Source: a virus
DNA length: 64,000 nucleotides
Strand: one strand, 5' to 3'
IMG/VR virus record: IMGVR_UViG_3300031707_000008
Location: 1-64,000 of that record
Under the pieces are notes generated by a model. That model was not told the DNA's origin and made no database searches. It worked only from the letters and a program-made list of their open reading frames with translations. Made by a program: the position numbers and the translations under genes. The stretch's first letter is position 1, and the number at the start of each line of letters is the position of its first letter. Below, piece by piece: positions 8,161-27,613 of this stretch.

Positions 8161-8363
8161 TGACATACGCGATTATGTATAACGAAAAACACCCTGATTG
8201 TGGGTTGTTTAACTTGGTTCGAAAAGTTGACCTGCAAACTACGTGGTGGATTTGTCCTGAGTGTCATACGTTTTGCTTTCGTGATGGACAAACATGTGAT
8301 TGTTTAGTGTCGATATTTAATCTTGAGATGTTTGACACTAGAGAAACGTTAAGAGTATGTTAA
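8160..8363 (+). CDS. Small Cys-rich hypothetical protein
   Basis: ATG overlaps the upstream stop; CPEC...CDC. Confidence 0.55.
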   Translation: MTYAIMYNEKHPDCGLFNLVRKVDLQTTWWICPECHTFCFRDGQTCDCLVSIFNLEMFDTRETLRVC

Positions 8364-9229
8364 GTATTGTGATGGCACATTTCAAACGAGAAACTCTTCT
8401 TGATCGAACGTTATGGGCGTATCGGCATTATCATTCTCTAGATACGCTACGTGATGTTGAGTTTATCATAATTGATGATGATGGTGGAAAGAGTCAACAT
8501 TTTTGGAATGTGATTGCGGAACATGGAAAGGCACTCAATATTTTTGCTACCGGAATAGATGAAGGAACTTATTGTCCTTGTATTCCGTTGAACTTCGCAA
8601 TAAAGCAAGCGCGTGGGAATGTTGTCGTAATAACGAATCCTGAATGTTTGCCCTTCACGAAAGACTTGCTGGACCAAATTAAAAAAAGAATAACAAATAA
8701 TATGTACCTCTCGTGTGCGTGTTATTCTTTGCCCTACGATGTTACGCAAGCTATGTATATGGTTGATTGGAAAACTAAGAAATATGCACTTACGTTTTTA
8801 GAATCAATACCAATTTACGATAACATGGCAGATGGTGACGGTATACCCGGCTGGTATAACCATAGTGAATATCGTCCAGTAAATTTGCATTGGTGTACGG
8901 CAATTTCTAGAGAATTCCTTGTTGCTATGGGTGCGTTTGATGAAGATTTTGCAATGGGGTTTGCTTACGAAGATAATGATTTTGCACGACGCATTGCAAA
9001 TTCTGGTTTGCGGATCCAATTCGCGAATGACTTACGCGTTTTCCATCAACATCATTACTTGCCTACATATTATACGCCAGAGAGACATGCACATATTGAA
9101 AGAAATCGCGTGGTATGTGAAAATAAACGCTATGCGGGTTTCGTTCGAAATCTAGGCAAAAAGTGGGGAACGTTACACAATCTACCTAAGCGAGTAGAGC
9201 GTTGGGAAGATGGGAAATTATGTCAATAA
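8357..9229 (+). CDS. Glycosyltransferase family 2 (GT-A fold)
   Basis: LSIVMAH, FIIIDDD, LNFAIKQARG, GAFDEDFAMGFAYEDNDFARR, HQHH. Confidence 0.9.
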   Translation: MLSIVMAHFKRETLLDRTLWAYRHYHSLDTLRDVEFIIIDDDGGKSQHFWNVIAEHGKALNIFATGIDEGTYCPCIPLNFAIKQARGNVVVITNPECLPFTKDLLDQIKKRITNNMYLSCACYSLPYDVTQAMYMVDWKTKKYALTFLESIPIYDNMADGDGIPGWYNHSEYRPVNLHWCTAISREFLVAMGAFDEDFAMGFAYEDNDFARRIANSGLRIQFANDLRVFHQHHYLPTYYTPERHAHIERNRVVCENKRYAGFVRNLGKKWGTLHNLPKRVERWEDGKLCQ

Positions 9230-10497
9230 AAGTTCTTGTTGCAAATCCACCGTGGCATTCTCCTGGGAAATGGGGTTTACGTGCTGGTGGACGTTGGTCG
9301 TATATGGCACCTTATCCTTGTATGACCAATCCACCGTTCTTCATGCTTTTCGCATTAACGTATGCGAGGAGACACTTCAGGAAAGACGAGGTTGAATTTT
9401 TCTTTCATGACTCTATTCCGAGTCGCGAGAGTTATGAAGCATTCTATGAGTACATGTTTGAGTTTAATCCTGACGTGTTGATAATTGAGCCCGCGACGGC
9501 GTCGTTCTATCACGACATGGAAGTGTGTCGTGAATTGCATAAACGACTTCCAAAAATGAAGATTATCCTTACAGGGGCACACGTGAGTGCTTTGGCCAGT
9601 GAAATCATGAACGAGTATGGAGATAAATCTCCGTATGACATATGGGCGATCTTCAAAGGTGAGTACGAACACACTTTAGTTAACTTCTTGCGAAAAGAGT
9701 TGGTGGTGGGGGAAAAGTCAATGGGGGTATGGGAATACGATCTCATGCCGCCTGAAGAAGTCTTAAACTCCCCCTTCGCCTGGAGAGGAATACCATCTGG
9801 CGATATTGCAAGGTATTGCGACTATCCCATTGAACCTCAACGTACTTACACGTTGTGGGGATCTCGTGGTTGCCCGTATCGTTGCATTTTTTGCCAATGG
9901 CCGGCGGTCATGTATAACACCAAGTATAGACCGCGTTCTCCTGCTAACATTCTTGCGGATATTGATGATGCCTTTCGATTGTGGCCACAATTGAATAGTG
10001 TGTACTTCGATGACGACACATTCAATATTGGAGAAGGTCGTTTGTATGAGATATCCGAAGGATTGATGAAGAGAAACATTCGTTGGGGGGCAATGTGTCG
10101 ACCCGATACGTGTTCAATAGATACGTGGCGTTTCATGGTGAAGTGTGGACTGACGAAAGTCAAGTTAGGAATTGAATCCGGCAGTCCGGAAATGATTAAG
10201 TGTTGCAAGAAACGACTTGACCTTGGGGTTGCTCGCGAAACAATTCGTGTTTTGAAGAGTTGTGGGGTTAAAGTCCACTTGACGTTTACTGAAGGTCTTC
10301 CTGGAGAGAAGGCAGAAGACTTAACCCTGTCGCATCAATTCCTTGAAGAGACGCGACCCGATACTTGGCAATGGAGTTATTGCGTCCCATTCCCAGGGAC
10401 ACCATTTTGGAAGCAGTATCGTGAACAATTGAAGGGGATTGATTTTGCATTATACGATGGGACGCGTTTCAAAATCGCGGATATGGTAAAGTTATGA
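9220..10497 (+). CDS. B12-binding radical SAM protein (class B methyltransferase-like)
   Basis: IILTGAHVS and GEYE in the B12 domain; SRGCPYRCIFC; FDDDTF; GIESGS; PFPGT. Confidence 0.9.
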   Translation: MSIKVLVANPPWHSPGKWGLRAGGRWSYMAPYPCMTNPPFFMLFALTYARRHFRKDEVEFFFHDSIPSRESYEAFYEYMFEFNPDVLIIEPATASFYHDMEVCRELHKRLPKMKIILTGAHVSALASEIMNEYGDKSPYDIWAIFKGEYEHTLVNFLRKELVVGEKSMGVWEYDLMPPEEVLNSPFAWRGIPSGDIARYCDYPIEPQRTYTLWGSRGCPYRCIFCQWPAVMYNTKYRPRSPANILADIDDAFRLWPQLNSVYFDDDTFNIGEGRLYEISEGLMKRNIRWGAMCRPDTCSIDTWRFMVKCGLTKVKLGIESGSPEMIKCCKKRLDLGVARETIRVLKSCGVKVHLTFTEGLPGEKAEDLTLSHQFLEETRPDTWQWSYCVPFPGTPFWKQYREQLKGIDFALYDGTRFKIADMVKL

Positions 10498-10859
10498 GAG
10501 CGATCATTGCGGGAAGTCGTAACATAAAGGACTTAAAAGTTGTAGAGGAAGCCATACGTGAATCTAGATTCGTCATTGATGAAGTTGTTTCCGGTGGGGC
10601 TTCGGGTGTTGATAGATTAGGCGAGCAATGGGCGACTCGCTACTCAAAACCCATAATAAGATTTCTTGCTAATTGGAACAAATTTGGTCGAGGTGCAGGT
10701 TTCGTTCGAAATGCGGAGATGGCAAGATATGGGGATGTGTTAATCGCCATTTGGGATGGCAAAAGTCCCGGAACGAAAAATATGATTAAAGTTATGCAGA
10801 AATATGGCAAGCCCGTACATGTAAAGGACTTGTCGGAAGTGTTATCTCACAAAGGTTGA
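10494..10859 (+). CDS. SLOG superfamily protein (DUF2493/YspA-like)
   Basis: IIAGSR, VVSGGASGVD, AGFVRNAEMA, AIWDGKSPGT. Confidence 0.85.
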   Translation: MRAIIAGSRNIKDLKVVEEAIRESRFVIDEVVSGGASGVDRLGEQWATRYSKPIIRFLANWNKFGRGAGFVRNAEMARYGDVLIAIWDGKSPGTKNMIKVMQKYGKPVHVKDLSEVLSHKG

Positions 10860-10863
10860 AATT

Positions 10864-11457
10864 ATGAAACAACATACGTATCGTGAAGTCTTAACGATGT
10901 TCCCGCAACTTGTTGTGGAGGAACAACATGGTTCTTTCTTCGTTTCTATAGTGTCTGAATGGTTAATGCGTCTTCGCCCAAGACTTGTTTTTGATGTGGG
11001 GATTGGTGTAGAAGGTTTTTGGGGGAGTTATATGCGAAAGTTGGGAATTCCTTGTGTGGGTATAGAGATTTGGGATAAGTACTTGACGCAACCCGCAATG
11101 CATGATTTTTACGATGGGATTATTGTTGGGGATATAGTCAATTTAGCTTCATCACTTTATGGTGATGTCATTATATTGGGGAACGTTCTTGAACATCTGA
11201 CGCAGGAAACAGCGTTGTCTGTGACGCGTTTATTGGCGGGGCATTGTAGGTGGTTAATTATTATGTCACCTTTAGGATTTCACGAACAAGCAGAGACAGA
11301 TGATTGTCCATACTCAAAGCATGTGTGTGGGTTTAGTCCAGAACATTTTGATTTCCTTTCGATTGTTGAATTGATACTTTTGAAGGAACCAGATGTTGTA
11401 GGTAGCGAATGCACTAAACCTTCGTGGTTCGCATTGCTTGCGAAGGGGAGCATGTGA
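10864..11457 (+). CDS. Class I SAM-dependent methyltransferase
   Basis: VFDVGIG.EG, VGIEIW, GDI, DVIILGNVLEHL. Confidence 0.8.
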   Translation: MKQHTYREVLTMFPQLVVEEQHGSFFVSIVSEWLMRLRPRLVFDVGIGVEGFWGSYMRKLGIPCVGIEIWDKYLTQPAMHDFYDGIIVGDIVNLASSLYGDVIILGNVLEHLTQETALSVTRLLAGHCRWLIIMSPLGFHEQAETDDCPYSKHVCGFSPEHFDFLSIVELILLKEPDVVGSECTKPSWFALLAKGSM

Positions 11458-12239
11458 TGCCCTTTACGAATGAAGTTAATATACTTCTTAAGCAATTCGA
11501 GTTTGATTGGTCTGGAAGTTATAAACACATTCGAGACGCTATTTATTTAATAACAAGATTGGTTGAAGCGCGAACGTATTTGGAGGTTGGTGCACCGAAA
11601 GACACATACTCGATACAATGTTTTAACGCACTTCCTGTGAAGATGAAGTTAACTATTGACAGGGACTTGAATGGAAGTGAAAATATTAACCCCACACAAA
11701 AATTGCAAATATCGAGTGACGACTTCTTTGGTTTACATGCTTTGAAGTATTTTCCTGAAGGTATAGATGTTGTTTTTATTGATGGGGATCATTCTTATAT
11801 TCAGTCGCGCCAAGATATAATAAACGCGTTGCAGTTTCTCACATCCCCCGGCGTGATACTCGTTCATGATTGTTTGCCGTCGAGTGAATATGCAACTGGG
11901 AAACAAACGTTTGAGGAACACCTTCAGTATTGTTCTTCACTTGAGGAATACACTCAAGCGGTTGCGATTTGGGTAGGTGAAGTATGGAAATCGATTGTGT
12001 ATTTTAGAAGTTTTCGTTCTGACGTGTATACGCGTGTCTTGAATTTTCCATTTATGGGGTTGGGTGTACTTTTCCCTACAAACATGTTTCAGAATACACA
12101 GTTGAATCTTGACTTGGCAACTATTGAAAACTTGCAATGGAAAGACGTTGAAAAAGATTTGAAGAAGTTCATTGGTTTAACGGAAATGCCTTACTTCACA
12201 AGAGTTTTGAGTAACATAACTCAGAGGCGGGTTTCATGA
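11457..12239 (+). CDS. Class I SAM methyltransferase (Methyltransf_24-like)
   Basis: YLEVG, SDDFF, DVVFIDGDHSY, PGVILVHDCLP, WVGEVWK. Confidence 0.85.
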   Translation: MPFTNEVNILLKQFEFDWSGSYKHIRDAIYLITRLVEARTYLEVGAPKDTYSIQCFNALPVKMKLTIDRDLNGSENINPTQKLQISSDDFFGLHALKYFPEGIDVVFIDGDHSYIQSRQDIINALQFLTSPGVILVHDCLPSSEYATGKQTFEEHLQYCSSLEEYTQAVAIWVGEVWKSIVYFRSFRSDVYTRVLNFPFMGLGVLFPTNMFQNTQLNLDLATIENLQWKDVEKDLKKFIGLTEMPYFTRVLSNITQRRVS

Positions 12240-12484
12240 CACCATCTTGCGGCATTAAAGTGAAGAGAATATTTCATCACGATGCGTGGGTTTTTGTAAA
12301 AGAAGAACTTGAGGGGAGAAGTTGGGATTTTTGTCTTTGCGCAATTTGCGCAAATTTGACACCAGAAGATGTTTTACACAATTGCCAAATCGCAAATGCA
12401 TTATATAGATTTTGCGTTGAGAACAACCTTGTTGCACCAATCTTTGAATGTCCTGTTTTTAGGGAGAAGGTCGAGAAGAAATGA
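12236..12484 (+). CDS. Cys-rich hypothetical protein
   Basis: ATGA overlaps at both ends; CLCAIC...C...C...ECP. Confidence 0.7.
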   Translation: MTPSCGIKVKRIFHHDAWVFVKEELEGRSWDFCLCAICANLTPEDVLHNCQIANALYRFCVENNLVAPIFECPVFREKVEKK

Positions 12485-13455
12485 CGACGATTTGTGCAGA
12501 AATTCAAGTCAAGGACGCCGACTGGATTCTTGGGGAGTGTTTAAGACATTTAAGTGACTTCGTCGATGAAGTCGTTGCCTTTGACGATGGATCTTCCGAC
12601 TTAACTCTTCCTTTATTACTATCATGGCCGTGCGTGAAGAAAATCTTCCGCAAACCCACTTCCGGTGTTTGGACCGAAAGTGAGAATCGTGCATTGCTTT
12701 TAGATATGGCAAAGACTTCTGGAAAGGAGTGGATTCTTTTCATTGACAGTGACGAAATTCTTGAGGCACGCGCTGCGAGAGGAATTAAGACGTTTTTACA
12801 AGAACGCCCGGAGATTTCAACTTGGAAGTGTGGAGAAATTAACTTGTGGAATAGTACGCATACGTATAGATGTGACGATTGGTTTGGTTTTGGGAAAGAC
12901 AACTTTCCACAGTTCGTGCGTTTTTTCCGAAATGATCCCGACTTGGTGTATCGACATACAGAAGGTTTGCATGGGAATCTTGTTCCAGTTAACGTAAAGT
13001 ACCCTGTCTTGAATAGTGGCTTCAATATTTTGCATTTTGCCTTTTTTGATCCAATTCGTCGCCAACGCAAAGCTGCATATTATCGTGAACGTGACGTTTC
13101 GTTGAGAAACGCCTCGGAAGATGATCCTTTACTGATTATGAATGTGAAGAGGTTGGTGTCAACTCCAAAACTCCCTCTCGTTGAAGTTGATACGTCTTGG
13201 TGGACACACGGGCAAGTTGAACTTCCATTGTTGGATTGTGACGCTCCAGTTGGACCATTCATTCAACACGATAGCGATACACGAAATCGTGTATGGGGGA
13301 AGGCCTTGTGGGGTAACTGGGATAAGAGTGGGAAAGTTTGGTTTGGAACACCTACGTGTGAGTCTAGAGAAGTTACGCGTCACGAACTTGTGTTACTTTA
13401 TTTCGAGGCGAAAAGAAGCGGAAAAGATATTTGTGAACTTTTCCAAAGGAGTTGA
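12481..13455 (+). CDS. Glycosyltransferase family 2
   Basis: VDEVVAFDDGSSD, WILFIDSDE; paralogous to the middle domain of 22821-25223. Confidence 0.9.
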   Translation: MTTICAEIQVKDADWILGECLRHLSDFVDEVVAFDDGSSDLTLPLLLSWPCVKKIFRKPTSGVWTESENRALLLDMAKTSGKEWILFIDSDEILEARAARGIKTFLQERPEISTWKCGEINLWNSTHTYRCDDWFGFGKDNFPQFVRFFRNDPDLVYRHTEGLHGNLVPVNVKYPVLNSGFNILHFAFFDPIRRQRKAAYYRERDVSLRNASEDDPLLIMNVKRLVSTPKLPLVEVDTSWWTHGQVELPLLDCDAPVGPFIQHDSDTRNRVWGKALWGNWDKSGKVWFGTPTCESREVTRHELVLLYFEAKRSGKDICELFQRS

Positions 13456-13456
13456 C

Positions 13457-14536
13457 ATGCCGTCTCCAAAATTGAGAATTCTCGTCACAGGTGATACCGG
13501 AACAATTGGTTGGTATCTTGTTCGTGAATTAAGACGCCGCGGGCATGAAGTTTTTGGTTGTTCGCGAAGACACGTTCCCGATGAGAAACATCTTCGTGCC
13601 GATGTGCGAGATTACCGTCAACTTGAACGGGTTTTTAGACAAGTTGAACCTACTGTGGTGTATCATCTCGCGGCTGAGTTTGGGCGTCATAATGGTGACA
13701 TGTTTTACGAACAATGTTGGGATACAAACGTGATTGGTGTTGAGAATGTTGCACTTCTATGCGCCGAATTTGGTGCGACTTTGATTTTTGCTTCTTCTAG
13801 TGAGGCGTATGGTGAAATAGATTTAGGTGACGACTTTATTCGTGAAGAGTATTTAAGTACACAACCTATTCACCACCTCAATAGTTACGCGATGTCGAAA
13901 TGGTGTGGTGAACACATTATTTTGAATGCTCAACGCAAATTCGATCTTCAGGCAGTTCGTTTGCGTTTCTTCAACGTTTACGGTCCGGGTGAGTTCTATC
14001 ATCCTTATCGCTCTGTTGTGTGTTTATTTTGTTATCGCGCTTTACATGGATTGCCTTACGAAGTGTATGACGGTTACCATAGAGTGTTTCAATTTGTTGG
14101 TGACTTCATTCCTACGGTAGCAAACGTTTGTGAATGTATTGATCCTCCAACAAGTCTCGCAATCAATATCGGCGGAGAAGAATACTGCTCCGTTGATTCA
14201 ATGTCTGCCAAAGTGCTTTCACTCGTGGGGGTGACTGAAGGGGACTTGCATATTCGCCATATAGCAAAAGACGAACATAACGTTGTCAATAAACGTCCCG
14301 ACAACACTTTAGCAAAAGGACTTTTGTCTCACAATCCTTCAACCCCCCTGTCTATCGGGTTAAAGGCCACGCTCGCTTGGATGACGAATATCTACGCGAA
14401 CACAATTGTACATCCACCGGCATTCTTGAAAGAGTGTACTTGCGAAGGTGAATATCAGTTACCCGTTCTTCAAGAAACAGTTGCGAAGAATACAAACTCC
14501 GAAACGAAGGAGACAGTAGACAATGTCGGTTTTTGA
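13457..14536 (+). CDS. NAD-dependent NDP-sugar epimerase/dehydratase (extended SDR)
   Basis: ILVTGDTGTIG, VYHLAA, ASSSEAYG, YAMSK, LRFFNVYGPGE; ATG at 13457 after AGGAG. Confidence 0.92.
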   Translation: MPSPKLRILVTGDTGTIGWYLVRELRRRGHEVFGCSRRHVPDEKHLRADVRDYRQLERVFRQVEPTVVYHLAAEFGRHNGDMFYEQCWDTNVIGVENVALLCAEFGATLIFASSSEAYGEIDLGDDFIREEYLSTQPIHHLNSYAMSKWCGEHIILNAQRKFDLQAVRLRFFNVYGPGEFYHPYRSVVCLFCYRALHGLPYEVYDGYHRVFQFVGDFIPTVANVCECIDPPTSLAINIGGEEYCSVDSMSAKVLSLVGVTEGDLHIRHIAKDEHNVVNKRPDNTLAKGLLSHNPSTPLSIGLKATLAWMTNIYANTIVHPPAFLKECTCEGEYQLPVLQETVAKNTNSETKETVDNVGF

Positions 14537-17295: not shown

Positions 17296-17319
17296 TGTTT
17301 GTTAACTAGGAGGTGTATC

Positions 17320-18979: not shown

Positions 18980-20293
18980 TTGAAAGAAGAGGGTGTTTTT
19001 ATTATACAGACAGACGTCCCATTCGATTTTCTCATTAGTCCAACGAAAGTCGCTGCTGAGACGGATGCATCTACGGGAGAAGAGTTGTGGATTTTAGAGG
19101 CGTTGGCGTGTACGTCGGACGTCGATCTTGGGGATGATGTCATTCTCCCAATCGCAATTAAGAATTCCGAAAGCGATTTGCTCGAGTATAGTACCGTCCT
19201 CGAGAATCATGACACTGATAAGCGCGTGGGCAAGATAATTGACTCAAGGGCAATTGATGTTGGTTTGTGGGTCAAAATCATGATTTCGAAGACCGTTCCT
19301 GCTGTGTGGCAACAGGTTCAAGAAGGTGTTTTGAGTAAACTTTCTATTCGTGGAAGAATTCTTGAAGTTATTAAGCATTCCGTGAATGGAAAGCCAGTAC
19401 GTGGTATTCAAAAGATGAAACTTGTTGAGACTTCTCTTGTGAGTGTTCCTATGAATGTGAAGGCAAGAGCACTACGGTGGTACGTATCGAAAGCTCTCGA
19501 CTCCGTCATGTGGGATAAAATAACTCCTGAAGGAGGTGAAAATATGCAAAGGAATCCTCGAGATGAAACGACACCCCTCCCTGCGGAGATACTCAAGGAA
19601 GCGGTGGTAGTCGAGAATTTGATTGTTCTTCCTGCGGTTGAGCAAAAGTCACTACCTATCGCTGGTGAAAGAAACGTTGAGATTCCTCCTGAGGTGAATC
19701 TTGCTGCACGACCAGATGTAGAAACTCGTAGTGTATTGCACAAAGAGACACCGGATCCCAATGACGCACCCGCTGAGGAAGAGACACCGGAAGAGGTACT
19801 AATTGAGAAAGTGATAAAAGTGCCTCTTGTTGAAAGTGTAGTAGAAGTTACTCCTTCTGAGATAGTGAAGGAGAAAGTGCTTCCTGCGGCAGAAGAGTCG
19901 GCTAAAGCGATTGCTCAAACGATTAACGTTTTGAAGGATGCTTTACCACACGTGATTGACAAGACTTCTCTTCCAGGAGAAGGTCTTTCTGTGGAAATGG
20001 CGAAGATAGCGAAAGACGTCGTGGATTTGCAAAACATTCTTGTTGCGGTCCAACAGGGTTTGGCGTTGGCTGAAAGCGTTGAGACCTTGAAGCAAGAGAT
20101 TGTTGGCTTGCGCAATCGTGTTGAGCAAACTCCTCTTCGTAAGGGTATTGACACCAAGCAACTTCCGAATGCACTCCCCACCCGCGATGCAATTTTGAAG
20201 GAATTGCGTGCATCAGAAGAGTTTAAACTATCAACCGCTCCCGAGCAACTTCGCATGGTGTTGGAAGTAATTGCTGCGACCATTTCAGCGTAA
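18980..20293 (+). CDS. HK97-type prohead protease fused to a scaffold
   Basis: DLGDDVI, VLENHD, GVLSKLSIRG, LVETSLVSVPMN; acidic coiled-coil C-terminus. Confidence 0.88.
   Translation: MKEEGVFIIQTDVPFDFLISPTKVAAETDASTGEELWILEALACTSDVDLGDDVILPIAIKNSESDLLEYSTVLENHDTDKRVGKIIDSRAIDVGLWVKIMISKTVPAVWQQVQEGVLSKLSIRGRILEVIKHSVNGKPVRGIQKMKLVETSLVSVPMNVKARALRWYVSKALDSVMWDKITPEGGENMQRNPRDETTPLPAEILKEAVVVENLIVLPAVEQKSLPIAGERNVEIPPEVNLAARPDVETRSVLHKETPDPNDAPAEEETPEEVLIEKVIKVPLVESVVEVTPSEIVKEKVLPAAEESAKAIAQTINVLKDALPHVIDKTSLPGEGLSVEMAKIAKDVVDLQNILVAVQQGLALAESVETLKQEIVGLRNRVEQTPLRKGIDTKQLPNALPTRDAILKELRASEEFKLSTAPEQLRMVLEVIAATISA
19544..20293 (+). CDS. Nested in-frame scaffold protein
   Basis: AAGGAGGTGA RBS upstream of the in-frame ATG at 19544, right after the protease domain. 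Confidence 0.65.
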   Translation: MQRNPRDETTPLPAEILKEAVVVENLIVLPAVEQKSLPIAGERNVEIPPEVNLAARPDVETRSVLHKETPDPNDAPAEEETPEEVLIEKVIKVPLVESVVEVTPSEIVKEKVLPAAEESAKAIAQTINVLKDALPHVIDKTSLPGEGLSVEMAKIAKDVVDLQNILVAVQQGLALAESVETLKQEIVGLRNRVEQTPLRKGIDTKQLPNALPTRDAILKELRASEEFKLSTAPEQLRMVLEVIAATISA

Positions 20294-20355
20294 GTTTCTT
20301 TCGTATAAAGAAGTCGCTTGTGTTTTTTTCTTTTTGAATTAAGGAGGTGAAAAAA

Positions 20356-21318
20356 ATGGAAAGACCCGACATTCTAAAGGCATTGTCTGGAGTCGTTGAG
20401 AAGGGAATTGCCGCGACTAATATCGCGTCAATTCTGGAGCAACCTGAGGTTGATGCCGTTGTAGCGCATCTGATTGATTATCAGAACCCGTTTCGGCAGA
20501 ATTTGCCGCGTAGGCCTGGTTCTGGTGCGGCTTACTTGTCAAACACTCGTACTGCGGGCAATACACCCGCGCAGTTTGTTGCTGACACGGATACGCTAAT
20601 GGAGGATACCGGAACGTATGGACGCATACCTTGGACGTACAAGACTATTGCGACGCGTGGAAAGATCACGCGTAAGGCGCAAAAGATTGGGATGTCTTTG
20701 TTGGACATCATGGCGGAAGAGTTAGAAGGGAAATCGGAAGACTTCCGCAACTACGAAGAGTGGGCCATTATCTATGGTAACTCCTCCACAGCGACACAAT
20801 TCGATGGACTCGACAAGATTTTCGTTGTGACGACTCCGGGAGCGCAATGCGTTGCAATGACGACAACGTCTGGCGGTCAAGCACTTTCGTTGACGAAGCT
20901 TGATCAGGCAATTGATAAGTGTGCACTACCTCCGAACATGCTTGTGATGTCTCGGAGGACGCGGAGGCAGTTGAGAACCCTTCTTCAGGCAAGTCAACGC
21001 TTTGTAAATACAGTAGAGGTGGTTGGTGGATTCAAGGTGTTGTCGTATGACGATATCCCGGTCTTTGTTTCGACGCAGATTTTGGATACGTATACGTTCA
21101 ACGGTACTGCCGATTCTGCATCTACAGGTGGAACTTGCACGAATCTTTACGCGTTGAATACCGCGGATTGCTTCATGTCGGTTTTAACGGATGTGACCGT
21201 GGAGCCGTTGGCGAAGGATTCTTCGCAATACCAACAGTTTGACATTTACGAGGATGTAGCTCTCGTAATGAAGAACATAAAGAAGCATGTGTGCTTAATC
21301 GGTATCAAGGATTCGTAA
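20356..21318 (+). CDS. Major capsid protein (HK97 fold)
   Basis: Follows protease/scaffold; EEWAIIYGN...QFDGL; strong RBS; followed by a hairpin. Confidence 0.88.
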   Translation: MERPDILKALSGVVEKGIAATNIASILEQPEVDAVVAHLIDYQNPFRQNLPRRPGSGAAYLSNTRTAGNTPAQFVADTDTLMEDTGTYGRIPWTYKTIATRGKITRKAQKIGMSLLDIMAEELEGKSEDFRNYEEWAIIYGNSSTATQFDGLDKIFVVTTPGAQCVAMTTTSGGQALSLTKLDQAIDKCALPPNMLVMSRRTRRQLRTLLQASQRFVNTVEVVGGFKVLSYDDIPVFVSTQILDTYTFNGTADSASTGGTCTNLYALNTADCFMSVLTDVTVEPLAKDSSQYQQFDIYEDVALVMKNIKKHVCLIGIKDS

Positions 21319-21335
21319 GGTAGGGGTGAAACGTT

Positions 21336-21382
21336 GTGAAAATGGAGTTGAACTCATGTTCGAGTGCAACTCCGTTTTTCAC
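21336..21382 (+). terminator. Stem-loop after the capsid gene
   Basis: GTGAAAATGGAGTTG...CAACTCCGTTTTTCAC. Confidence 0.55.
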
Positions 21383-21398
21383 CTAGGAGGAAAACTGC

Positions 21399-21611
21399 AT
21401 GTTCGTGTTGAAATACCAAACTCAACCGTGTCCAACTGAATGGAATGAGTTTCCACGTGACGAGACCATCAAGGTTGTAAATGGAATTGCTGTAATGGAG
21501 AAGGAAGTTTCTCGATTGCATTTGCTCTTTCGGGGGTTTGAAGATATTACGGAGACACCTGAGGGGATCGAAATTCGAAAAACGCATGGAGAACGTATTA
21601 GTAAAAAGTAG
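21399..21611 (+). CDS. Hypothetical virion-module protein
   Basis: AGGAGG RBS, between capsid and connector genes. Confidence 0.7.
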   Translation: MFVLKYQTQPCPTEWNEFPRDETIKVVNGIAVMEKEVSRLHLLFRGFEDITETPEGIEIRKTHGERISKK

Positions 21612-21620
21612 GAAACACGC

Positions 21621-22205
21621 GTGATTGGGAACTTGACTGACTTGAAAGTCTTTTGTGAGATTGTGGGAACAACGTATGATTCTCTTTTGAATATGTTGTT
21701 GGCACAAAAGAGTGCGTCTCTCGAGAGTGCGTGTAATCGTAGATTTGAATTGCATTCTAGGTGCGATCTTATAACGGTTAAACGCAATGTGTCACAAATT
21801 CACTTAGGGGATTATCCTGTCGTTAGCGTGGCAGCAATTACAATTGGTGACATAACGACAATTAACCCTTCAGAGTATTACGTTTCGAAGGCGCAAGGTA
21901 CTATTTACTTCTCTGACGGGGTTATTTTAGCAGGAACTACCGTGTGTGTTACGTATTCAGCGGGTTACACACCTTCTACATACATTCCGCAAGATATTGT
22001 TTTCGCTGTTTATTCTTGGGTTAATAGTCATTTTGTAACGAGGAAGTTACTTGGAATTCGTAGAGAACGTGTTGGGGATCGATCGATTGAGTTGGACACT
22101 TTAGGTTCAACAACGGATTTGCCGTCGTACGTTCGAGAAGTTGTCTACAATCGCAAACGCACTTTGACTCGCTATCATGATATTCTTGAGATAACAGGAG
22201 CGTAA
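21621..22205 (+). CDS. Head-tail connector (adaptor)
   Basis: LTDLK...ESACNRRF...YPVVSV...VTYSAGY...PQDIV.A...ERVGDRS. Confidence 0.8.
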   Translation: MIGNLTDLKVFCEIVGTTYDSLLNMLLAQKSASLESACNRRFELHSRCDLITVKRNVSQIHLGDYPVVSVAAITIGDITTINPSEYYVSKAQGTIYFSDGVILAGTTVCVTYSAGYTPSTYIPQDIVFAVYSWVNSHFVTRKLLGIRRERVGDRSIELDTLGSTTDLPSYVREVVYNRKRTLTRYHDILEITGA

Positions 22206-22212
22206 TGTTAAC

Positions 22213-22821
22213 GTGGCAGGAAATTTATTTTTCAACCAAGTTTTTAGTTTGTTGCGCTTTTCTGAAGTGGCGTATACACATGCTTTAGATTCTATGGTGT
22301 TGAACGTTCCCACTCTCACTTTTGAAAGGACTCCCTTCAAGATTTGGGTGGAACTTTCTGGAAGTGTAGCGGGAAATACATTTGATCTTGGTATCGTTGG
22401 ATTTGATGTCAATGCTGGGGTGACGTATGCTACTTTGGAGTTTACGGCGATTGGATTTCAATTGACACCTTGCGAATTCGGTACGTTAACTGCAGTGGCA
22501 ACCGGAGTGGTAGAACCCGCAGTTACAGTTACTTTATCGGGTTCGAATGATATGCACGAACGAATTCGCGTAAAAACTACGCAGTCAATTCTGGGGTATA
22601 TAGCGGAGAGAGGAGGTTTTTTTAGCAACCAACCTTATGGCAGTATTGTCCAAGGGGATGCTGCACTTTACGTGGAGTCTTTGAATGTCATCCAGGTTGG
22701 TGATATTATACTTTTTGGCGCGAAACAGTACTTGATTGAAGACGTTGTTGAAAAGTCAAGTTTGACTGGACAACTGAATTATGTTGTTGGCACGCTTCGC
22801 CATCAAGAAGGGAAACCATAA
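22213..22821 (+). CDS. Putative head-closure protein
   Basis: Position; C-terminal IQVGDII.F...Y.IEDV. Confidence 0.5.
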   Translation: MAGNLFFNQVFSLLRFSEVAYTHALDSMVLNVPTLTFERTPFKIWVELSGSVAGNTFDLGIVGFDVNAGVTYATLEFTAIGFQLTPCEFGTLTAVATGVVEPAVTVTLSGSNDMHERIRVKTTQSILGYIAERGGFFSNQPYGSIVQGDAALYVESLNVIQVGDIILFGAKQYLIEDVVEKSSLTGQLNYVVGTLRHQEGKP

Positions 22822-25223
22822 TGCGAGAGAAAGTCTCTATCGTAACGGTGTTGTTCAACGAAGTTGAACACACAATTCGTTTCGTTGAATCGTTGCGCAA
22901 GTACACGAGAGAATATGAGTTGATCGTAATTGACAATTGCAGTACAGATGGGACATGTGGTTTTTTAACAGAACTTGCAAGCAAAGGTGAAATTCCTATT
23001 CGAGTTTATCATAATGACACCAACTTGGGATATGTGAAGGGGATAAATCAAGGAATTAGGTTGGCGGAATTTTCTCTTATTTGCATAGTTAATAATGATA
23101 TTGTTTTCTCTCCAGGTTGGTTGGATAAGTTGCGTTGGGGATTGCTTACTGGGGTGAAGAAAGTGAAAACCCTGACGGGGCCTGTTGGTGCTGTCGGACC
23201 TACTGCTGACAATGTATCTGGAATGCAGGTTGTTCAGTTAAATCCTATACCGCGTGAATGGAACGATACTACAATGCGTTCCGTGAATGCGGAAGTCAGA
23301 AAGGGCAATCTCATAGAAACTGGATTCCTTGTTGGTTTTTGCATGTTGATAAGGCGTGAAGTTTTCGATTCGATTGGTTTGTTTGATGAAGAGAATTTTT
23401 CCAATGGTGGTTTTGACGATAACGATTTTTGCTTGCGTATGTTGCATGCTGGGTGGAAGATGTTGATAGTAGGAAATTGCTTTTTGCATCATGTGGGCGG
23501 GGCAACGATACGACATTTTCCTGAATTGAAGCGTGGTACGTCTAGTCGTTTTCAATTTTACAAGAAGTGGCATAATCCCAATCCTACGCGTGTGATTGCA
23601 GCATACCGGGTTAAAGATGGTGGGGAATTGTTCGCGAAGAGTTTGGCAAACGTGAGTGAGTTTGTTGATGGAATCGTCGTGTTTGATGATAACTCAACTG
23701 ATAACACTAGTGCAGTAGCACGAGCGTGTCCTAAAGTTCTTGAAGTTAAACGCACAAGTCGTACGACTTTTGATGAGAGAATGGATCGCAATGACGCACT
23801 CGAATTGGCACGAATGCATGGTGCGGAATGGATCCTTGCAATTGATTCCGACGAGCTTTTTGGACCGGAAATGACTTACGCGCGTATGCAGAATTTGACA
23901 CATCCAGTCAATCCGCAATACTTGAGTTTTGGTTTTTACTGGTACAATTTCTGGAATTCGTTGACGCATTACCGTACTGATGGCATTTGGGGACAAATGC
24001 GTGGAAGTCGTTTGTTTAAGGTGCTACCCAATCAACGAATTGTTCTTGGATCTACTCAAGGATTGCATTGTGGAAATATTCCTTACTTCGCCCCAACGAA
24101 TGTGATGCAAACTTGTATTCGTATCAAACATTACGGATATGTTTCTCCGCAACAGCGTTTGGATAAGTATAAATTTTACAGCAACGTAGATCAAGACTTG
24201 CGTCCAGAATTGGTGGGTGCGGAAAATTACAATCATCTTATTCATGACTCGGATATGCACATAAGACGTTGGCTCGACACGAATGGCATTTCTCTTGCCA
24301 TTATGGGGAAGAATGAAGCAGATGATTTGACTGCCGTTCTTGAGTTTATGCGATATCTCGTGGATGAAGTGATATACCTTGACACGGGGAGTTCTGATGC
24401 ATCACTGGATGTGGCGCGTGCATTGGGCGCACGCGTATTCGAAAAAGAATGGGTTGATGACTTTTCCGAGATGCGCAACTATTTGATTTCGCAGTCGACT
24501 CAACGCTGGATTTTTCATATGGATCCAGACGAGAGAATGTCCCCCGTTGACGCATTCAAGTTGCGTCACGTCATTGATGATACCGACACGGTTGCGTTTT
24601 TTGTGCCATTAATCAATCACCACCCGGATGGACGTCAAACGATGAACGAGAACGTGAGAATCTTCAGAAATTTGCCTATTATGAAGTATACTGGAAGAGT
24701 GCATGAAACATTCGATTTGGCATTGCGCCAGTTGCGAAATCAGGCCCCAATGCGTATGGCGCCTTTTGCAATCAACCATTTTGGATACATGAAACCGAAA
24801 CCGCGTGTGCAAGAAAAGTTGGACTTGTACGAACGCTTGAATATGGCACAATACAAAGAGTCTCCTGGGGATCCTCGCCCGTGTTTAAATCTTGCATTGC
24901 AACGATTAAACGATGGGAATATCGAGGAAGGTTCTGCATTACTTTGGGAAGCGTTGAAGCGTGATCCTAACTACTATCAGGCAGCGAAAGAATTGGCTTG
25001 CGTCAACGTCGAACAAGCAAAGGGTTTGTTGCGTTTGACAGTTAGCAAGCTGCCACCCAACTTCCCTTTGAGAGTTTGGGCGGAGAAATCTCTTGCCGCG
25101 ATGGATGAACACTTCCCGAATAGAGTTTATGCTGGTGAACCGAAGAAGTATAAAAAGCGTAGCAAGAATACGTTTGCAGGAAAATCTGAAGAACTGAAGA
25201 AGTTGGTGGAAGAAGTTGCCTGA
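22821..25223 (+). CDS. Multidomain glycosyltransferase: three GT2 domains + TPR
   Basis: Domain 1 LIVIDNCSTDGT/NNDI/DDNDFCLR; domain 2 VFDDNSTDNT/AIDSDE; domain 3 YLDTGSSD/DDFSEMRN/MDPDE/GRVHE; helical TPR-like end. Confidence 0.92.
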   Translation: MREKVSIVTVLFNEVEHTIRFVESLRKYTREYELIVIDNCSTDGTCGFLTELASKGEIPIRVYHNDTNLGYVKGINQGIRLAEFSLICIVNNDIVFSPGWLDKLRWGLLTGVKKVKTLTGPVGAVGPTADNVSGMQVVQLNPIPREWNDTTMRSVNAEVRKGNLIETGFLVGFCMLIRREVFDSIGLFDEENFSNGGFDDNDFCLRMLHAGWKMLIVGNCFLHHVGGATIRHFPELKRGTSSRFQFYKKWHNPNPTRVIAAYRVKDGGELFAKSLANVSEFVDGIVVFDDNSTDNTSAVARACPKVLEVKRTSRTTFDERMDRNDALELARMHGAEWILAIDSDELFGPEMTYARMQNLTHPVNPQYLSFGFYWYNFWNSLTHYRTDGIWGQMRGSRLFKVLPNQRIVLGSTQGLHCGNIPYFAPTNVMQTCIRIKHYGYVSPQQRLDKYKFYSNVDQDLRPELVGAENYNHLIHDSDMHIRRWLDTNGISLAIMGKNEADDLTAVLEFMRYLVDEVIYLDTGSSDASLDVARALGARVFEKEWVDDFSEMRNYLISQSTQRWIFHMDPDERMSPVDAFKLRHVIDDTDTVAFFVPLINHHPDGRQTMNENVRIFRNLPIMKYTGRVHETFDLALRQLRNQAPMRMAPFAINHFGYMKPKPRVQEKLDLYERLNMAQYKESPGDPRPCLNLALQRLNDGNIEEGSALLWEALKRDPNYYQAAKELACVNVEQAKGLLRLTVSKLPPNFPLRVWAEKSLAAMDEHFPNRVYAGEPKKYKKRSKNTFAGKSEELKKLVEEVA

Positions 25224-25692
25224 TTATGACGTTCGCATTCTAGGAAAGGAAAAAGTACTCGCGAAGATTGCTCATAAGAAGATGCAAATTACTTCGGGAA
25301 TTCATCTTGGTGTGGTTAAAGCAACACGCTCGTTGAAACAAGGTGTTGTTGCGAACGCTTCTCGAACGGACTATTCTTTAAATGAGTTGGAAGACATGGG
25401 GTACCCTTATGCACGTCGTGATCCTCATCCGCCGTTAGAACCACCTTGGCTGGTGCATACACGTTCTGGGAAGTTGGTTTCAGCAATTATGTCATTCACA
25501 CATAAAGAATCTTGGGGGTCTCTCGGGAGGGTATATATAGATGCAACCATTGCCCCCCACGCTCCAGCGGTACTATTCGGGACCACGCGCATGATTGGAA
25601 GAGATTTTTTAAGAGAAACGCGCATTATTATGTCAGCGCAAATCCGGAAAACCATCGTAGATACCTTGCGTTTGGAGGTTCGTGGTGGTTGA
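25216..25692 (+). CDS. HK97 gp10-like tail completion protein
   Basis: TRSGKL..AI, APHAPAVLFGTTRMIGRDFL. Confidence 0.75.
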   Translation: MPDYDVRILGKEKVLAKIAHKKMQITSGIHLGVVKATRSLKQGVVANASRTDYSLNELEDMGYPYARRDPHPPLEPPWLVHTRSGKLVSAIMSFTHKESWGSLGRVYIDATIAPHAPAVLFGTTRMIGRDFLRETRIIMSAQIRKTIVDTLRLEVRGG

Positions 25693-26131
25693 TACATACT
25701 TTGACTTTGAATCTGTTGTTTCTCGGGTTTTGACAACCGTTTTAATCGGGAATACGGACGTTTCGACCGAGGTACGGGATAAAGTATACCACGCCGAACT
25801 CGCTGAGGTGAACAATCCTGTGTTTCCGTGTGTTTGTTTCAAGATGTGGGGAAATCCTCCACTCTTCCGTGGTTTGCAAGGAGCCGAATATACGTTACGC
25901 ATTTGGTCTTGGGCGCAATCGCAAGTAGGTGCCTCATTGTTGTTGGCGAAAGTTTCTGCCGCGTTGGAGCCACGCCGCTTTACGGACGCCGACAAAACTT
26001 TTGCGATTGTATTTGAACCATCCGTGGGGGGAGGAGTTTACGTCGACACTACCGGAAACGTATTTGGTTCGGTTGAGACTTACCGCGTGAGGGCAATTGC
26101 TAGAAAATCTACAGAAAGACCCTTCCATTGA
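25682..26131 (+). CDS. Tail terminator-like protein
   Basis: Position before the tail tube; VY......FPCV pattern. Confidence 0.6.
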   Translation: MVVDTYFDFESVVSRVLTTVLIGNTDVSTEVRDKVYHAELAEVNNPVFPCVCFKMWGNPPLFRGLQGAEYTLRIWSWAQSQVGASLLLAKVSAALEPRRFTDADKTFAIVFEPSVGGGVYVDTTGNVFGSVETYRVRAIARKSTERPFH

Positions 26132-26388
26132 AGGATGGTGATAACGTGCAAGAAGAACAAAATGCTCTACGGAAAACTGGAAAACGTGTAAGTGATGACA
26201 GTAGGTGGGCTTGTGAAGGTTGTCATGCAACTTTGGGTTATGTTGATAAAACTGGGAAAATTCTACGTGTAAAGTACAGAGATTTGTACATTACCGTAGA
26301 AGGTGGAACTACCACTGTAGTGTGTCGCGTTTGTGGGCGTCATGCCCGACTCGAATACATCGAGGATGGCGAGACGAAACAAACGTAA
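26128..26388 (+). CDS. Zinc-ribbon protein (Mu Com-like)
   Basis: CEGC.ATLG...CRVCG. Confidence 0.6.
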   Translation: MKDGDNVQEEQNALRKTGKRVSDDSRWACEGCHATLGYVDKTGKILRVKYRDLYITVEGGTTTVVCRVCGRHARLEYIEDGETKQT

Positions 26389-26425
26389 ATTTTCTTCTTT
26401 AACTCTTCGAAGGAGGTGAAATATT

Positions 26426-26968
26426 GTGGGTTATAACATTCCTTCTTATTCCGTTGACAATATCACTTTCGGACCAGGTATTTTGTACCTTGGCACTTCC
26501 GGTGCTACACCGACAGTTGATATTGGTGCCGTGACGTCTGCGAAGCTTACGATGACGCGTGCCAAACTCGAGATCAAACAAGGTTCGCCAAAACAACTTG
26601 TCAAGCGTTACGCTTCGGAAGAGACCGTACAGTTCTCAATCACTGGTATCGAGTGGAAGCCAAATAACATCGCACGTGCTTTGGGTGCGGGTGTTACATC
26701 AGGATCGGCGACGACTGACATCCTTGAGTACGGTGGAGATATGAACTTTACTTCAGTAGCATTGAAGTTCGTTCATGTTATGCCATCGGGTGATACCATC
26801 AACTTATTCATTTGGTCAGCGCATGGTTCTGGTGATATGGAAATCACGTTCGGTGATGACGTTCATGAGATACCGTTGGCGTTTGACGCATTACGTTCCT
26901 CGACCGACTGGGCGGGTGCAACACTTGCGTCAAACAAACAGTTTTTCAAACTTCTTAAGGAGATATAG
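26426..26968 (+). CDS. Major tail tube protein
   Basis: NITFGPGILY...DIGA; strong AGGAGGTGA RBS; precedes chaperones and tape measure. Confidence 0.8.
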   Translation: MGYNIPSYSVDNITFGPGILYLGTSGATPTVDIGAVTSAKLTMTRAKLEIKQGSPKQLVKRYASEETVQFSITGIEWKPNNIARALGAGVTSGSATTDILEYGGDMNFTSVALKFVHVMPSGDTINLFIWSAHGSGDMEITFGDDVHEIPLAFDALRSSTDWAGATLASNKQFFKLLKEI

Positions 26969-26970
26969 GC

Positions 26971-27402
26971 ATGGTTGATCAAACCGCCAAGGAACTTGAC
27001 TTGTTCGCCCCCGGTGGAACAAAAGTGAAGACTATAGCAGGAGAAGAGTGCACTGTAGGTGCGGTCACTTGGGGCAAAGAGATCCAGATCATGAAATCGG
27101 TCAAACTTGTACTGGCGAATTTACGTGAAGTCGTTCCAGACATGACGAACGCAAGCGGAAGTACTATCTTGAAGATTATAGAGGTAGCCCTAGAAGTGGC
27201 TCCCGAGCAAATGACGAAGATTTGCGCAACTCTCCTTGACAAAGACCCACAATGGATTTCAGACAATCTTGATGGGGATGCAGTATATGGTTTGGTGGTG
27301 CCTTTTTTCAAGTGGAAGAAGCAGTCACTTCTAGGACTCCTCGCAAAGACTGGGTTGAAACTGCCTCCGGCAGTATCATCGCGCATGTCGTTGCATACTT
27401 AG
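26971..27402 (+). CDS. Tail assembly chaperone (G)
   Basis: Between tube and tape measure; contains CCT TTT TTC. Confidence 0.75.
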   Translation: MVDQTAKELDLFAPGGTKVKTIAGEECTVGAVTWGKEIQIMKSVKLVLANLREVVPDMTNASGSTILKIIEVALEVAPEQMTKICATLLDKDPQWISDNLDGDAVYGLVVPFFKWKKQSLLGLLAKTGLKLPPAVSSRMSLHT

Positions 27403-27611
27403 GTAGATTCTGTAGTTGTTCGCCGGAGGATGTTTTCAAATTGACGCGTGCGCAAGTAGAAGCTTTGTATATGGAGGCGATAGATTTACGCGAACGTGAC
27501 TACGAGGTACTAGCAACAATGTTGGGGGCGAAAGTAGAGAAACGTACGCGAAAAAGTGTACCAATTGAAGATGCACTGAACAAAGGGAATCTTCCGGTTG
27601 AGGTTGCGTAG
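27303..27611 (+). CDS. Tail chaperone -1 frameshift extension (GT)
   Basis: Slippery T TTT TTC at 27303-27309; -1 frame is open to 27611. Confidence 0.7.
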   Translation, partial: FFQVEEAVTSRTPRKDWVETASGSIIAHVVAYLGRFCSCSPEDVFKLTRAQVEALYMEAIDLRERDYEVLATMLGAKVEKRTRKSVPIEDALNKGNLPVEVA

Positions 27612-27613
27612 CG

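Follow-up and report, generated by a model that had tools for sequence, protein, structure and literature searches.

A predicted soluble triple GT-A glycosyltransferase with a TPR-like repeat among the neck genes of an uncultivated phage: a candidate enzyme for virion glycosylation

To our knowledge, virion glycosylation among bacteriophages has been shown only in a few mycobacteriophages. In these phages, it shields the particles from antibodies. According to PMC12363180 and PMC11600133, capsid and tail tube of the mycobacteriophages Che8, Corndog and Myrna are glycosylated by glycosyltransferases (GTs) that these phages encode themselves; both sources refer to Freeman et al. 2023 for GTs and O-methyltransferases that modify these proteins in Che8 (gp110), Corndog (gp38) and Myrna, and PMC12619734 provides further precedent. 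The chlorovirus PBCV-1 encodes three-domain GTs, A111/114R and A064R, for its capsid glycans (PMC7826918). Among protein and peptide GTs, GmaR of Listeria monocytogenes transfers GlcNAc to flagellin and is arranged as a GT domain followed by a TPR domain (PMC9638930), the TPR domain of FlmG binds its flagellin substrate (PMC7591256), and SunS and ThuS are S-glycosyltransferases of glycocins (PDB 7msn, 7msp and 7msk). Here, we describe a gene (22821-25223, plus strand; 800 open codons) in the first 64 kb of the 74.6-kb linear IMG/VR virus record IMGVR_UViG_3300031707_000008, a stretch hereafter called the window. Its product, referred to below as the GT, combines three GT-A domains with a TPR-like helical repeat and is encoded among the genes for the neck of the particle. 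All analyses are computational, and the phage is uncultivated.

Pfam recognises PF00535 in three separate stretches of the GT (130.4 bits against a cut-off of 23.3) and PF13704 at residues 282-347. The AlphaFold2 model, which was built with a 41-sequence alignment (predicted local distance difference test (pLDDT) 91.3, predicted template modelling score (pTM) 0.89), consists of three Rossmann-like GT-A domains and a helical repeat, and its GT-A folds match those of GT-A enzymes with VIA Z scores of 19-23. The repeat comprises helices at residues 660-680, 685-697, 701-714, 719-743 and 749-764. A search with the single sequence left it below threshold as a TPR (PF14561, E 0.028). It became clear with the family profile, in which residues 665-756 match consensus TPR proteins and the TPR of OGT. 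A sequence-only reading of the window had described three GT-A domains and a TPR-like tail within 800 residues, and this architecture is borne out by Pfam, AlphaFold2 and the family profile.

Conservation was read from an alignment of 41 sequences, whose homologs are 28-41% identical. In Domain 1 (domain limits are given in Table 1), D93 and D200 are invariant and N39, D43, N91, D189, D202, R206 and H224 nearly so. Domain 2 retains W337..D342xD344-E345 and H437, and Domain 3 carries DTGSSD, DDFSEMRN, W563..D568xD570-E571, R613, H628-E629 and H653. The DxD-type motifs of the three domains (D93; D342xD344; D568xD570) are invariant or at least 90% conserved. Because the acidic and histidine motifs are kept at this level of identity, all three GT-A domains are probably active.

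No transmembrane segment was found in the GT, in which the highest Kyte-Doolittle mean over 19 residues is 1.29 (0.97-1.72 across the family). As no member of the family contains a hydrophobic segment, we predict the GT to be soluble and, lacking a transmembrane helix in its sequence, to be neither a membrane synthase nor a lipid-carrier GT. The GtrB-type lipid-carrier GT2 of seroconverting phages was also considered and rejected: membrane anchoring is missing, the match to PHROG 841 is partial, covering residues 3-104 only, and the genes annotated close to the GT and within the upstream cluster described below include no GtrA/GtrC-type partners.

Domain 3 reveals the closest described relatives of the protein. 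It matches GmaR (22ao_A) with an E value of 6e-17 over 177 residues as a single sequence and of 1.3e-40 with the family profile, where GmaR is the best solved sequence and is followed by SunS (3e-26) and ThuS (1e-21). In the single-sequence search, these three are the sole solved sequences at E <= 1e-3. The Domain 3 motifs DTGSxD, DDFSxxRN, DxDE, HE and HxGY align column by column with GmaR, ThuS and SunS. Superimposing the catalytic domain and helical part of the model on ThuS (7msk_B) yields a Z score of 22.9 and a root mean square deviation (RMSD) of 3.2 over 262 aligned residues (model residues 390-752); superposition on SunS (7msp_B) yields a Z score of 22.5 (model residues 375-800). On sequence and model, Domain 3 and the TPR are thus identified as a protein/peptide glycosyltransferase module of the GmaR/SunS/ThuS type. 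The sequence-only reading had placed the TPR-linked domain with protein O-glycosyltransferases on the motif string DTGSxD...DDFS..RN...HE; the string is present and aligns with all three enzymes, and the placement agrees with their sequence and structure matches. The GT is not a SunS ortholog, because it scores 64.4 bits against the SunS equivalog TIGR04195, whose cut-off is 350, with positions 55-253 of the 421 of that model matched.

By its sequence, Domain 2 is a paralog of Domain 3 that has diverged from it. Among solved sequences, GmaR comes closest to it (E 1e-3), and a stand-alone GT in the same genome (12481-13455) is its paralog (E 1.4e-21). Domain 1 is, on sequence and model, a generic GT2. 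The VIA match of its model (residues 1-227) to ppGalNAc-T2 (4d11_F; Z 21.3, RMSD 2.5, 196 residues aligned) is tied with WrtF, TarP and RmlT, and K4CP and heparosan polymerases are equally close. As several kinds of enzyme are equally near, the acceptor type of Domain 1 cannot be read from its fold.

When comparing the GT with described systems, GmaR shares with it the motifs DTGSxD, DFSxxRN, W..DxDE, RxFxN, HE and HxGY, the order of GT and TPR, and a soluble, cytoplasmic nature. Whereas GmaR has one GT domain, a long TPR, a linker and an antirepressor part that binds MogR, the GT has two extra GT-A domains ahead, a TPR of five helices only and no antirepressor domain. SunS and ThuS are the best structural matches of Domain 3 and the TPR; the GT differs from them in being a multi-GT fusion with no glycocin precursor or transporter genes nearby. 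FlmG/Maf-type enzymes resemble the proposed system as cytoplasmic O-glycosyltransferases whose TPR binds a folded substrate and whose adjacent genes make and tailor the sugar. However, the catalytic domain of FlmG is GT-B-like, its TPR is N-terminal and its substrate is flagellin. The PBCV-1 enzymes join three transferase domains in one polypeptide, which builds a capsid-protein glycan residue by residue in the cytoplasm. The likeness drawn here is one of logic. PBCV-1 is a eukaryotic giant virus with atypical N-linked glycans, and its enzymes have no TPR. The mycobacteriophage systems, finally, consist of separate single-domain GT genes, whereas here one three-domain fusion with a TPR lies within the neck operon.

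The GT gene is truly part of the neck gene set, as head genes, the adaptor gene and g202 lie upstream and g158, g149, g86 and the tube gene downstream. Its ATG and the TAA of the upstream open reading frame (ORF; 22213-22821) overlap by one base (TAATG), and its TGA falls 8 nt within the downstream ORF, whose start codon is a TTG (25216). These overlaps of 1 and 8 nt confirm those noted in the sequence-only reading with the upstream stop and the downstream start, and they support the translational coupling within the operon that this reading had drawn from them. From the adaptor gene (21621) through g86 (26388), genes abut or overlap, with gaps of +7, -1, -8, -11 and -4. The start codon of the GT is supported, since its N-terminus lines up with the N-termini of 40 homologs. 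We considered whether the gene is a moron and rejected this reading: it overlaps both neighbours, its GC content is like theirs, and terminator-like sites occur at chance level, with none at its junctions. Promoter-like sites are in only modest excess over the shuffled mean, which also disfavours a moron. No tRNA genes were found in the 64-kb window.

Megablast of positions 20000-28000 against GenBank phages gave no match. The sequence-only reading had pointed to mycobacteriophages that glycosylate capsid and tail proteins with their own GTs; no homology to those GTs appeared at the tblastn level: a search with the whole GT against 50,697 phage records (E 1e-5) returned 9 records, 0 of them from mycobacteriophages. 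The nearest GenBank phage relative is a stand-alone GT that Caudovirales GX15bay encodes in a cluster rich in GT genes. Scanning viral contigs for single-protein patterns of the GT or the capsid protein brought up nothing, but profile-based scans did find relatives. About 20 full-length homologs were retrieved from a large protein collection, and a profile scan of IMG/VR revealed about 30 contigs encoding the full protein, from Domain 1 to the TPR, at 29-42% identity.

Gene order in these loci (designated L) was read by tblastn, ORF clustering and domain hidden Markov models (HMMs), and the neck-operon placement proved conserved in dozens of distant phages, often with tailoring genes adjacent. 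More than 35 IMG/VR loci show the order adaptor, c2, GT, g158, g149, g86 and tail tube, and in nearly all contigs with a full-length GT it runs from capsid, adaptor, c2 and GT through g158, g149, g86 and tube to chaperone and tape measure. The position of the GT is held across at least three capsid families: the HK97/SU10 type, Phage_capsid_4 with a cement protein (L015, L016, L023-L025 and L028) and PHROG 138; the window itself is of the Phage_capsid/SU10 type. In L012 and L017, the GT immediately precedes the protease and capsid genes of other head modules. A search seeded with the tail tube, and hence not dependent on the GT, yielded 33 assessable loci, 29 of which encode the GT in full or reduced form; L108/L109 and L114/L117 lack it.

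The fusion is modular. Domain 1 is a separate gene beside Domain 2-Domain 3-TPR in L034, and an N-terminal part of no known kind precedes Domain 3-TPR in L092-L094, L110 and L116. Domain 1-Domain 3 forms occur in L036-L040 and L048, a Domain 3-TPR-GT4 form in L043 and three separate genes in L063; more distant contigs carry single-domain GT genes between the adaptor/neck genes and the tape measure. The common element of the multi-domain forms is Domain 3, usually with the TPR, and Domains 1 and 2 are split off, replaced or swapped. Tailoring genes beside the GT within the structural operon of relatives encode a Methyltransf_24/CmcI-like methyltransferase, a GT1-family (GT4-like) enzyme, a radical SAM/SPASM protein, a polysaccharide pyruvyl transferase, a sulfatase-family enzyme and an epimerase, and in some relatives a sub-threshold MptE/Maf-like match lies beside the GT.

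The cluster at 8357-14536 in the window (Table 1) is, judging from its sequence matches, a probable site of donor synthesis and glycan tailoring. The longest ORF of its epimerase begins at 13181 and thus shares 275 nt with the preceding GT, so that the start of this gene is probably near 13455. Caudovirales GX15bay (L199; MK557849.1, 13126-18249) carries six annotated GT genes and a methyltransferase in series upstream of terminase, with a seventh GT2 about 4.7 kb further upstream, an arrangement that parallels the upstream cluster of the window.

Relatives also show irregularities around the GT and tube genes. In L010 (13047-14231; also in L011, L101 and L102), the tail tube gene is apparently split: residues 1-56 and 25-179 match about 570 nt apart, and a 151-residue ORF (13277-13732) lies between. 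This split could reflect an insertion such as a homing element or intron. Precomputed domains of P0022, a 750-residue homolog with 37% identity over 41% of the query, are LAGLIDADG_3 (PF14528), Intein_splicing (PF14890) and GT2, which suggests an intein-bearing GT copy. In L004 (2464-6616), two extra tail-tube paralogs (175 and 219 residues) and a 990-residue protein with a CBM_4_9 carbohydrate-binding domain are encoded between the c2 gene and the GT, and the regular tube gene follows g86. The g158 homolog directly after the GT in L007 (10838-12277) is a fusion or extended form of 479 residues, where about 160 are usual. ORFs of 800-1534 residues lie between capsid and adaptor/GT in L008 (1444-8839), L010 (2533-8371), L020 (4999-7887), L029 (6205-8901) and L031 (2992-6402). 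These ORFs have no Pfam matches and could encode decoration or fibre proteins.

We propose that the GT is a late-expressed cytoplasmic assembly line, which rather likely O-glycosylates virion proteins. We infer the protein nature of the acceptor, its identity as a virion protein, the order in which the domains act and the type of linkage. The soluble GT would be made late together with the particle proteins and would act in the cytoplasm, either ahead of assembly or in its course. A folded virion protein would be bound by the TPR while Domain 3 transfers the first sugar onto a surface Ser/Thr (or Cys), and Domains 2 and 1 would then add the following sugars. The GTs, methyltransferases, radical-SAM protein and nucleoside diphosphate (NDP)-sugar epimerase/dehydratase of 8357-14536 may supply a modified donor and tailor or cap the glycan. 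In relatives, genes adjacent to the GT may take over this role of the cluster. That the TPR-linked domain primes and the others extend had already been suggested in the sequence-only reading. The idea fits, because Domain 3 and the TPR form the shared core and the other GT modules are exchangeable, being swapped, split off or replaced, and we retain it as a proposal.

Several observations weigh against a virion acceptor. Structural proteins of the window contain more Ser and Thr than the others (15.9% vs 11.5%, p 5e-5; at most 10 per 20 residues). This enrichment is usual for phage structural proteins, and low-complexity Ser/Thr tracts or tails are absent from those of the window; of the Ser/Thr-rich stretches claimed earlier, a mild enrichment stands, and the argument drawn from them is weak. 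Mycobacteriophage glycans sit at C-terminal extensions of capsid and tail tube, whereas no Ser/Thr-rich C-terminal extension is seen here in the capsid protein (323 residues), the tube protein (180 residues) or their relatives; glycans may sit at other sites. Tube alignments of GT-bearing loci against the GT-less L108 and L114 show no consistent difference in loops or extensions. The extra N-terminal domain of c2/g202 was tried as an acceptor and rejected: GT-less L114 has the short form, but GT-less L108 has the long one, and L023, L024 and L098 have the short form with the GT present. An acceptor signature was hence found neither by phyletic pattern (tube, c2/g202) nor by composition. Moreover, the GT-A folds and the Domain 1 neighbours TarP, RmlT and K4CP include polymer-directed enzymes, and the family also occurs, full-length and with intact motifs, in type VI secretion system (T6SS) islands with VgrG and PAAR. 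Because islands and phage loci share no other protein, there is no common acceptor family, and a non-virion role is possible. Within the proposed scheme, we slightly prefer neck or tail proteins to the capsid as acceptors, since the GT travels with the neck and tube block while the capsid families change; the tail tube would be among the most plausible.

The island homologs, which the sequence-only reading had not foreseen, broaden the possible acceptors and roles beyond the capsid and tail proteins it had named. In a prokaryote scan with one genome per species, full-length cellular homologs (33-37% identity, residues 4-779) were found among Myxococcota and Acidobacteriota, namely in Sorangium (four genomes, including So ce56), Pyxidicoccus fallax, Hyalangium versicolor, Sulfidibacter corallicola and metagenome-assembled genomes of Archangium and Holophagae. 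None of the nine loci has phage structural genes near the homolog. Instead, nearly all nine have in common an island with genes for VgrG (Phage_GPD and gp5_C), DUF2169, a protein of about 355 residues, a Tox-PAAR-like protein, a protein of about 465 residues, two small proteins and the GT, after which comes a gene for a HEAT-like or small protein. Among the nine genomes, the zincin-like gene recurs in 9, DUF2169 in 8, VgrG and the PAAR-like gene in 7 each, and every other neighbour in most; the matches in L121 are VgrG (PF05954, E 2e-71), DUF2169 (E 2e-95) and Tox-PAAR-like (E 5e-42). The protein of about 465 residues has an HExxH motif and zincin-like Atlas neighbours. By eye, the N-terminus of the protein of about 355 residues is ketoacyl-synthase-like. 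The TssC sheath protein is encoded elsewhere in all 5 of the genomes tested.

Whereas the cellular homologs are fixed members of VgrG/PAAR islands, the window gene belongs to the neck operon of a phage, and no VgrG or PAAR gene lies near it. HMMs of the island neighbours gave no significant match across the phage loci, only a single marginal one (E 0.008, PAAR-like model, L105). Of the 61 sequences in our tree, 13 are labelled cellular: nine come from the genome loci, and P0009, P0011, P0014 and P0017 were assigned by resemblance, with context observed for P0011 only, which is identical to L121. The 13 form one clade (Shimodaira-Hasegawa-like approximate likelihood ratio test (SH-aLRT) 100) inside a phage-dominated tree; its sister is phage L012 (100), and the window protein with P0002 comes next (85). 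With a midpoint root only, this topology suggests that a phage gene was captured by T6SS islands.

Other acceptors have to be weighed against the virion proteins. The GT might glycosylate a host envelope polymer (teichoic acid, lipopolysaccharide or an exopolysaccharide precursor), or polymerise a free oligo- or polysaccharide late, which could block superinfection or keep progeny from sticking to debris. We regard this as unlikely, although Domain 1 is as near to TarS/TarP, RmlT, the chondroitin polymerase K4CP and heparosan synthase as to ppGalNAc-Ts, multi-GT-A polymerases are soluble or peripheral, and the matching PHROGs are classed as moron or host takeover. The shared core of Domain 3 and TPR is nearest to protein/peptide GTs, and the gene is fixed in the neck operon rather than being an early or lysogeny gene. 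Furthermore, the protein has no transmembrane segment, the annotated genes of the upstream cluster include no Gtr/Wzx/Wzy partners, and the cellular homologs lie in Gram-negative T6SS islands, not in envelope-polysaccharide loci.

The assignment of Domain 3 to protein GTs would equally suit an acceptor outside the particle, be it a host protein or a non-structural phage protein, with the neck operon providing late timing only. The lack of an acceptor signature in the structural proteins is in accordance with such a target. Nevertheless, we consider it quite improbable: changes of capsid family and of the remaining genome leave the gene in its place among neck and tail genes, and the structural operon that holds it has taken up tailoring genes as well.

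The island context raises a third alternative, in which the GT is injected cargo, which bacteria load on VgrG/PAAR and phages package and eject, and glycosylates a target in the recipient with the recipient's nucleotide sugars. The full-length homologs occupy the usual effector place of conserved VgrG-DUF2169-PAAR-like islands, TssC accompanies them in every genome tested, and the phage gene sits at the head/tail junction. We give this reading a slim chance, as three conserved GT domains with donor and tailoring genes in the producer cell fit the building of a glycan better than a single toxic modification, and the island already has an effector candidate in its HExxH zincin-like protein. In addition, alignments judged by eye, with no marker search made, show no sizeable N-terminal extension or PAAR/Rhs/MIX fusion, and the literature searched reports no T6SS glycosyltransferase effector or VgrG-island GT. 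Glycosylation of the phage DNA as a hypermodified, anti-restriction base is very improbable, for although phage GTs often act on DNA and the upstream cluster has SLOG and NDT-like genes close by, no search linked the GT to a known family of DNA glycosyltransferases. Its fold and motifs are of the GmaR/SunS type with a TPR, its gene lies in the neck operon, and DNA modification does not explain the T6SS-island homologs.

We tentatively consider a broader form of the proposed protein glycosylation, which is possible though doubtful. The family might be one mobile protein-glycosylation module for two kinds of puncturing machine that assemble in the cytoplasm, serving neck, tail or capsid proteins in phages and, as a phage-derived bacterial copy, T6SS spike proteins or the zincin-like effector.

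The genes around the GT complete the structural operon (Table 1), with a prohead protease upstream and chaperone, tape measure and Dit genes after the tail tube gene. The c2 family (about 200 residues) precedes the GT in most relatives, and g202 aligns with its profile end to end (hhalign, 170 columns, E 1e-4). The C-terminus of c2 weakly matches the head-closure protein 9mt4_E (E 0.058), and Atlas structure rows for g202, Phage_HCP and Phage_attach, are weak (template modelling score 0.36-0.43). The AlphaFold2 model of g158 (pLDDT 80) superposes on the SaPI1 neck chain 9mu2_P with a Z score of 10.4 and an RMSD of 3.1 over 109/109 aligned residues, with the next match at Z 6.2. The sequence-only reading had called this downstream gene gp10-like; by its model it is a neck protein, while the name gp10 finds no Pfam or PHROG match. 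The small protein g86 (26128-26388) contains two Cys pairs (CEGC ... CRVC), zinc ribbon-like, has no family match and is encoded directly before the tube gene in most relatives. Two large ORFs at 16147-18975 (382 and 558 residues), before the prohead protease, stand at the expected place of terminase and portal; neither is matched by Pfam or PHROG with the thresholds applied.

Table 1. Coordinates and supporting evidence of the GT, its domains, the surrounding genes and the bacterial island loci
Feature	Position	Strand	Evidence or remark
Triple GT-A and TPR glycosyltransferase gene (P0001)	22821..25223	+	800 aa, predicted soluble
Domain 1 (aa 1-254), canonical GT2 GT-A	22821..23582	+	PF00535 residues 6-183, PF13641
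Domain 2 (aa 255-485), Glyco_tranf_2_4-type GT-A	23583..24275	+	PF13704 at 282-347
Domain 3 (aa 486-662), GmaR/SunS/ThuS-type GT-A	24276..24806	+	GmaR match, TIGR04195 partial, PHROG 13126
TPR-like helical repeat (aa 663-764, five helices)	24807..25112	+	AlphaFold2, family profile
Lys-rich C-terminal tail, partly disordered	25113..25220	+	pLDDT <50 at 777-787; ragged alignment end, not conserved
Probable glycan-tailoring cluster	8357..14536	+	Pfam, PHROG 540, paralogy; just upstream of packaging and head genes
GT2	8357..9229	+	
B12-binding radical SAM	9202..10497	+	
YspA/SLOG	10494..10859	+	
Methyltransferases (two)	10864..11457, 11424..12239	+	
GT2_4, Domain 2 paralog	12481..13455	+	
NAD epimerase/dehydratase	longest ORF from 13181, end 14536	+	start probably near 13455
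Major capsid protein, HK97-type (323 aa)	20347..21318	+	PHROG 212, PF17236, PF05065
Head-tail adaptor	21621..22205	+	PHROG 442, E 1.8e-19
g202, head-closure-like, extra N-terminal domain	22213..22821	+	positional ortholog of c2 family
g158, neck protein	25216..25692	+	AlphaFold2 model match to SaPI1 neck; conserved after GT in most loci
g149, tail-completion-like	25682..26131	+	PF11367 E 0.008, below cut-off; conserved position
g86, small Cys-pair (CxxC...CxxC) protein	26128..26388	+	sequence; conserved position before tail tube gene
Major tail (tube) protein (180 aa), candidate acceptor	26426..26968	+	PHROG 807, 2175; alignments of relatives
T6SS island loci	L119-L128; e.g. L121:2751-13685		L123 = Sorangium cellulosum So ce56 NC_010162.1, ~11.64 Mb

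Virus-encoded virion glycosylation is already known. The fusion of three GT-A domains with a TPR as a family, its fixed neck-operon place in uncultivated siphoviruses and its presence in T6SS islands were not found in the literature searched. The GT is a compact, soluble and easily expressed enzyme with which the idea of virion glycosylation can be tested. If its domains act in sequence, it would represent a natural three-step assembly line for a protein glycan, with a possible use in the glyco-engineering of phage particles. The link to T6SS islands opens a new lead that can be tested in bacteria amenable to cultivation, such as Sorangium cellulosum So ce56, Pyxidicoccus fallax DSM 14698 and Sulfidibacter corallicola M133. 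It raises the questions of whether T6SS parts or effectors are glycosylated and how genes move between phage tails and T6SS loci; if the mobile module exists, these would be the first glycosylated T6SS components. If the proposed function is true, virion glycosylation would be no mycobacteriophage curiosity. It would be widespread in environmental siphoviruses, and both old and widespread among uncultivated phages.

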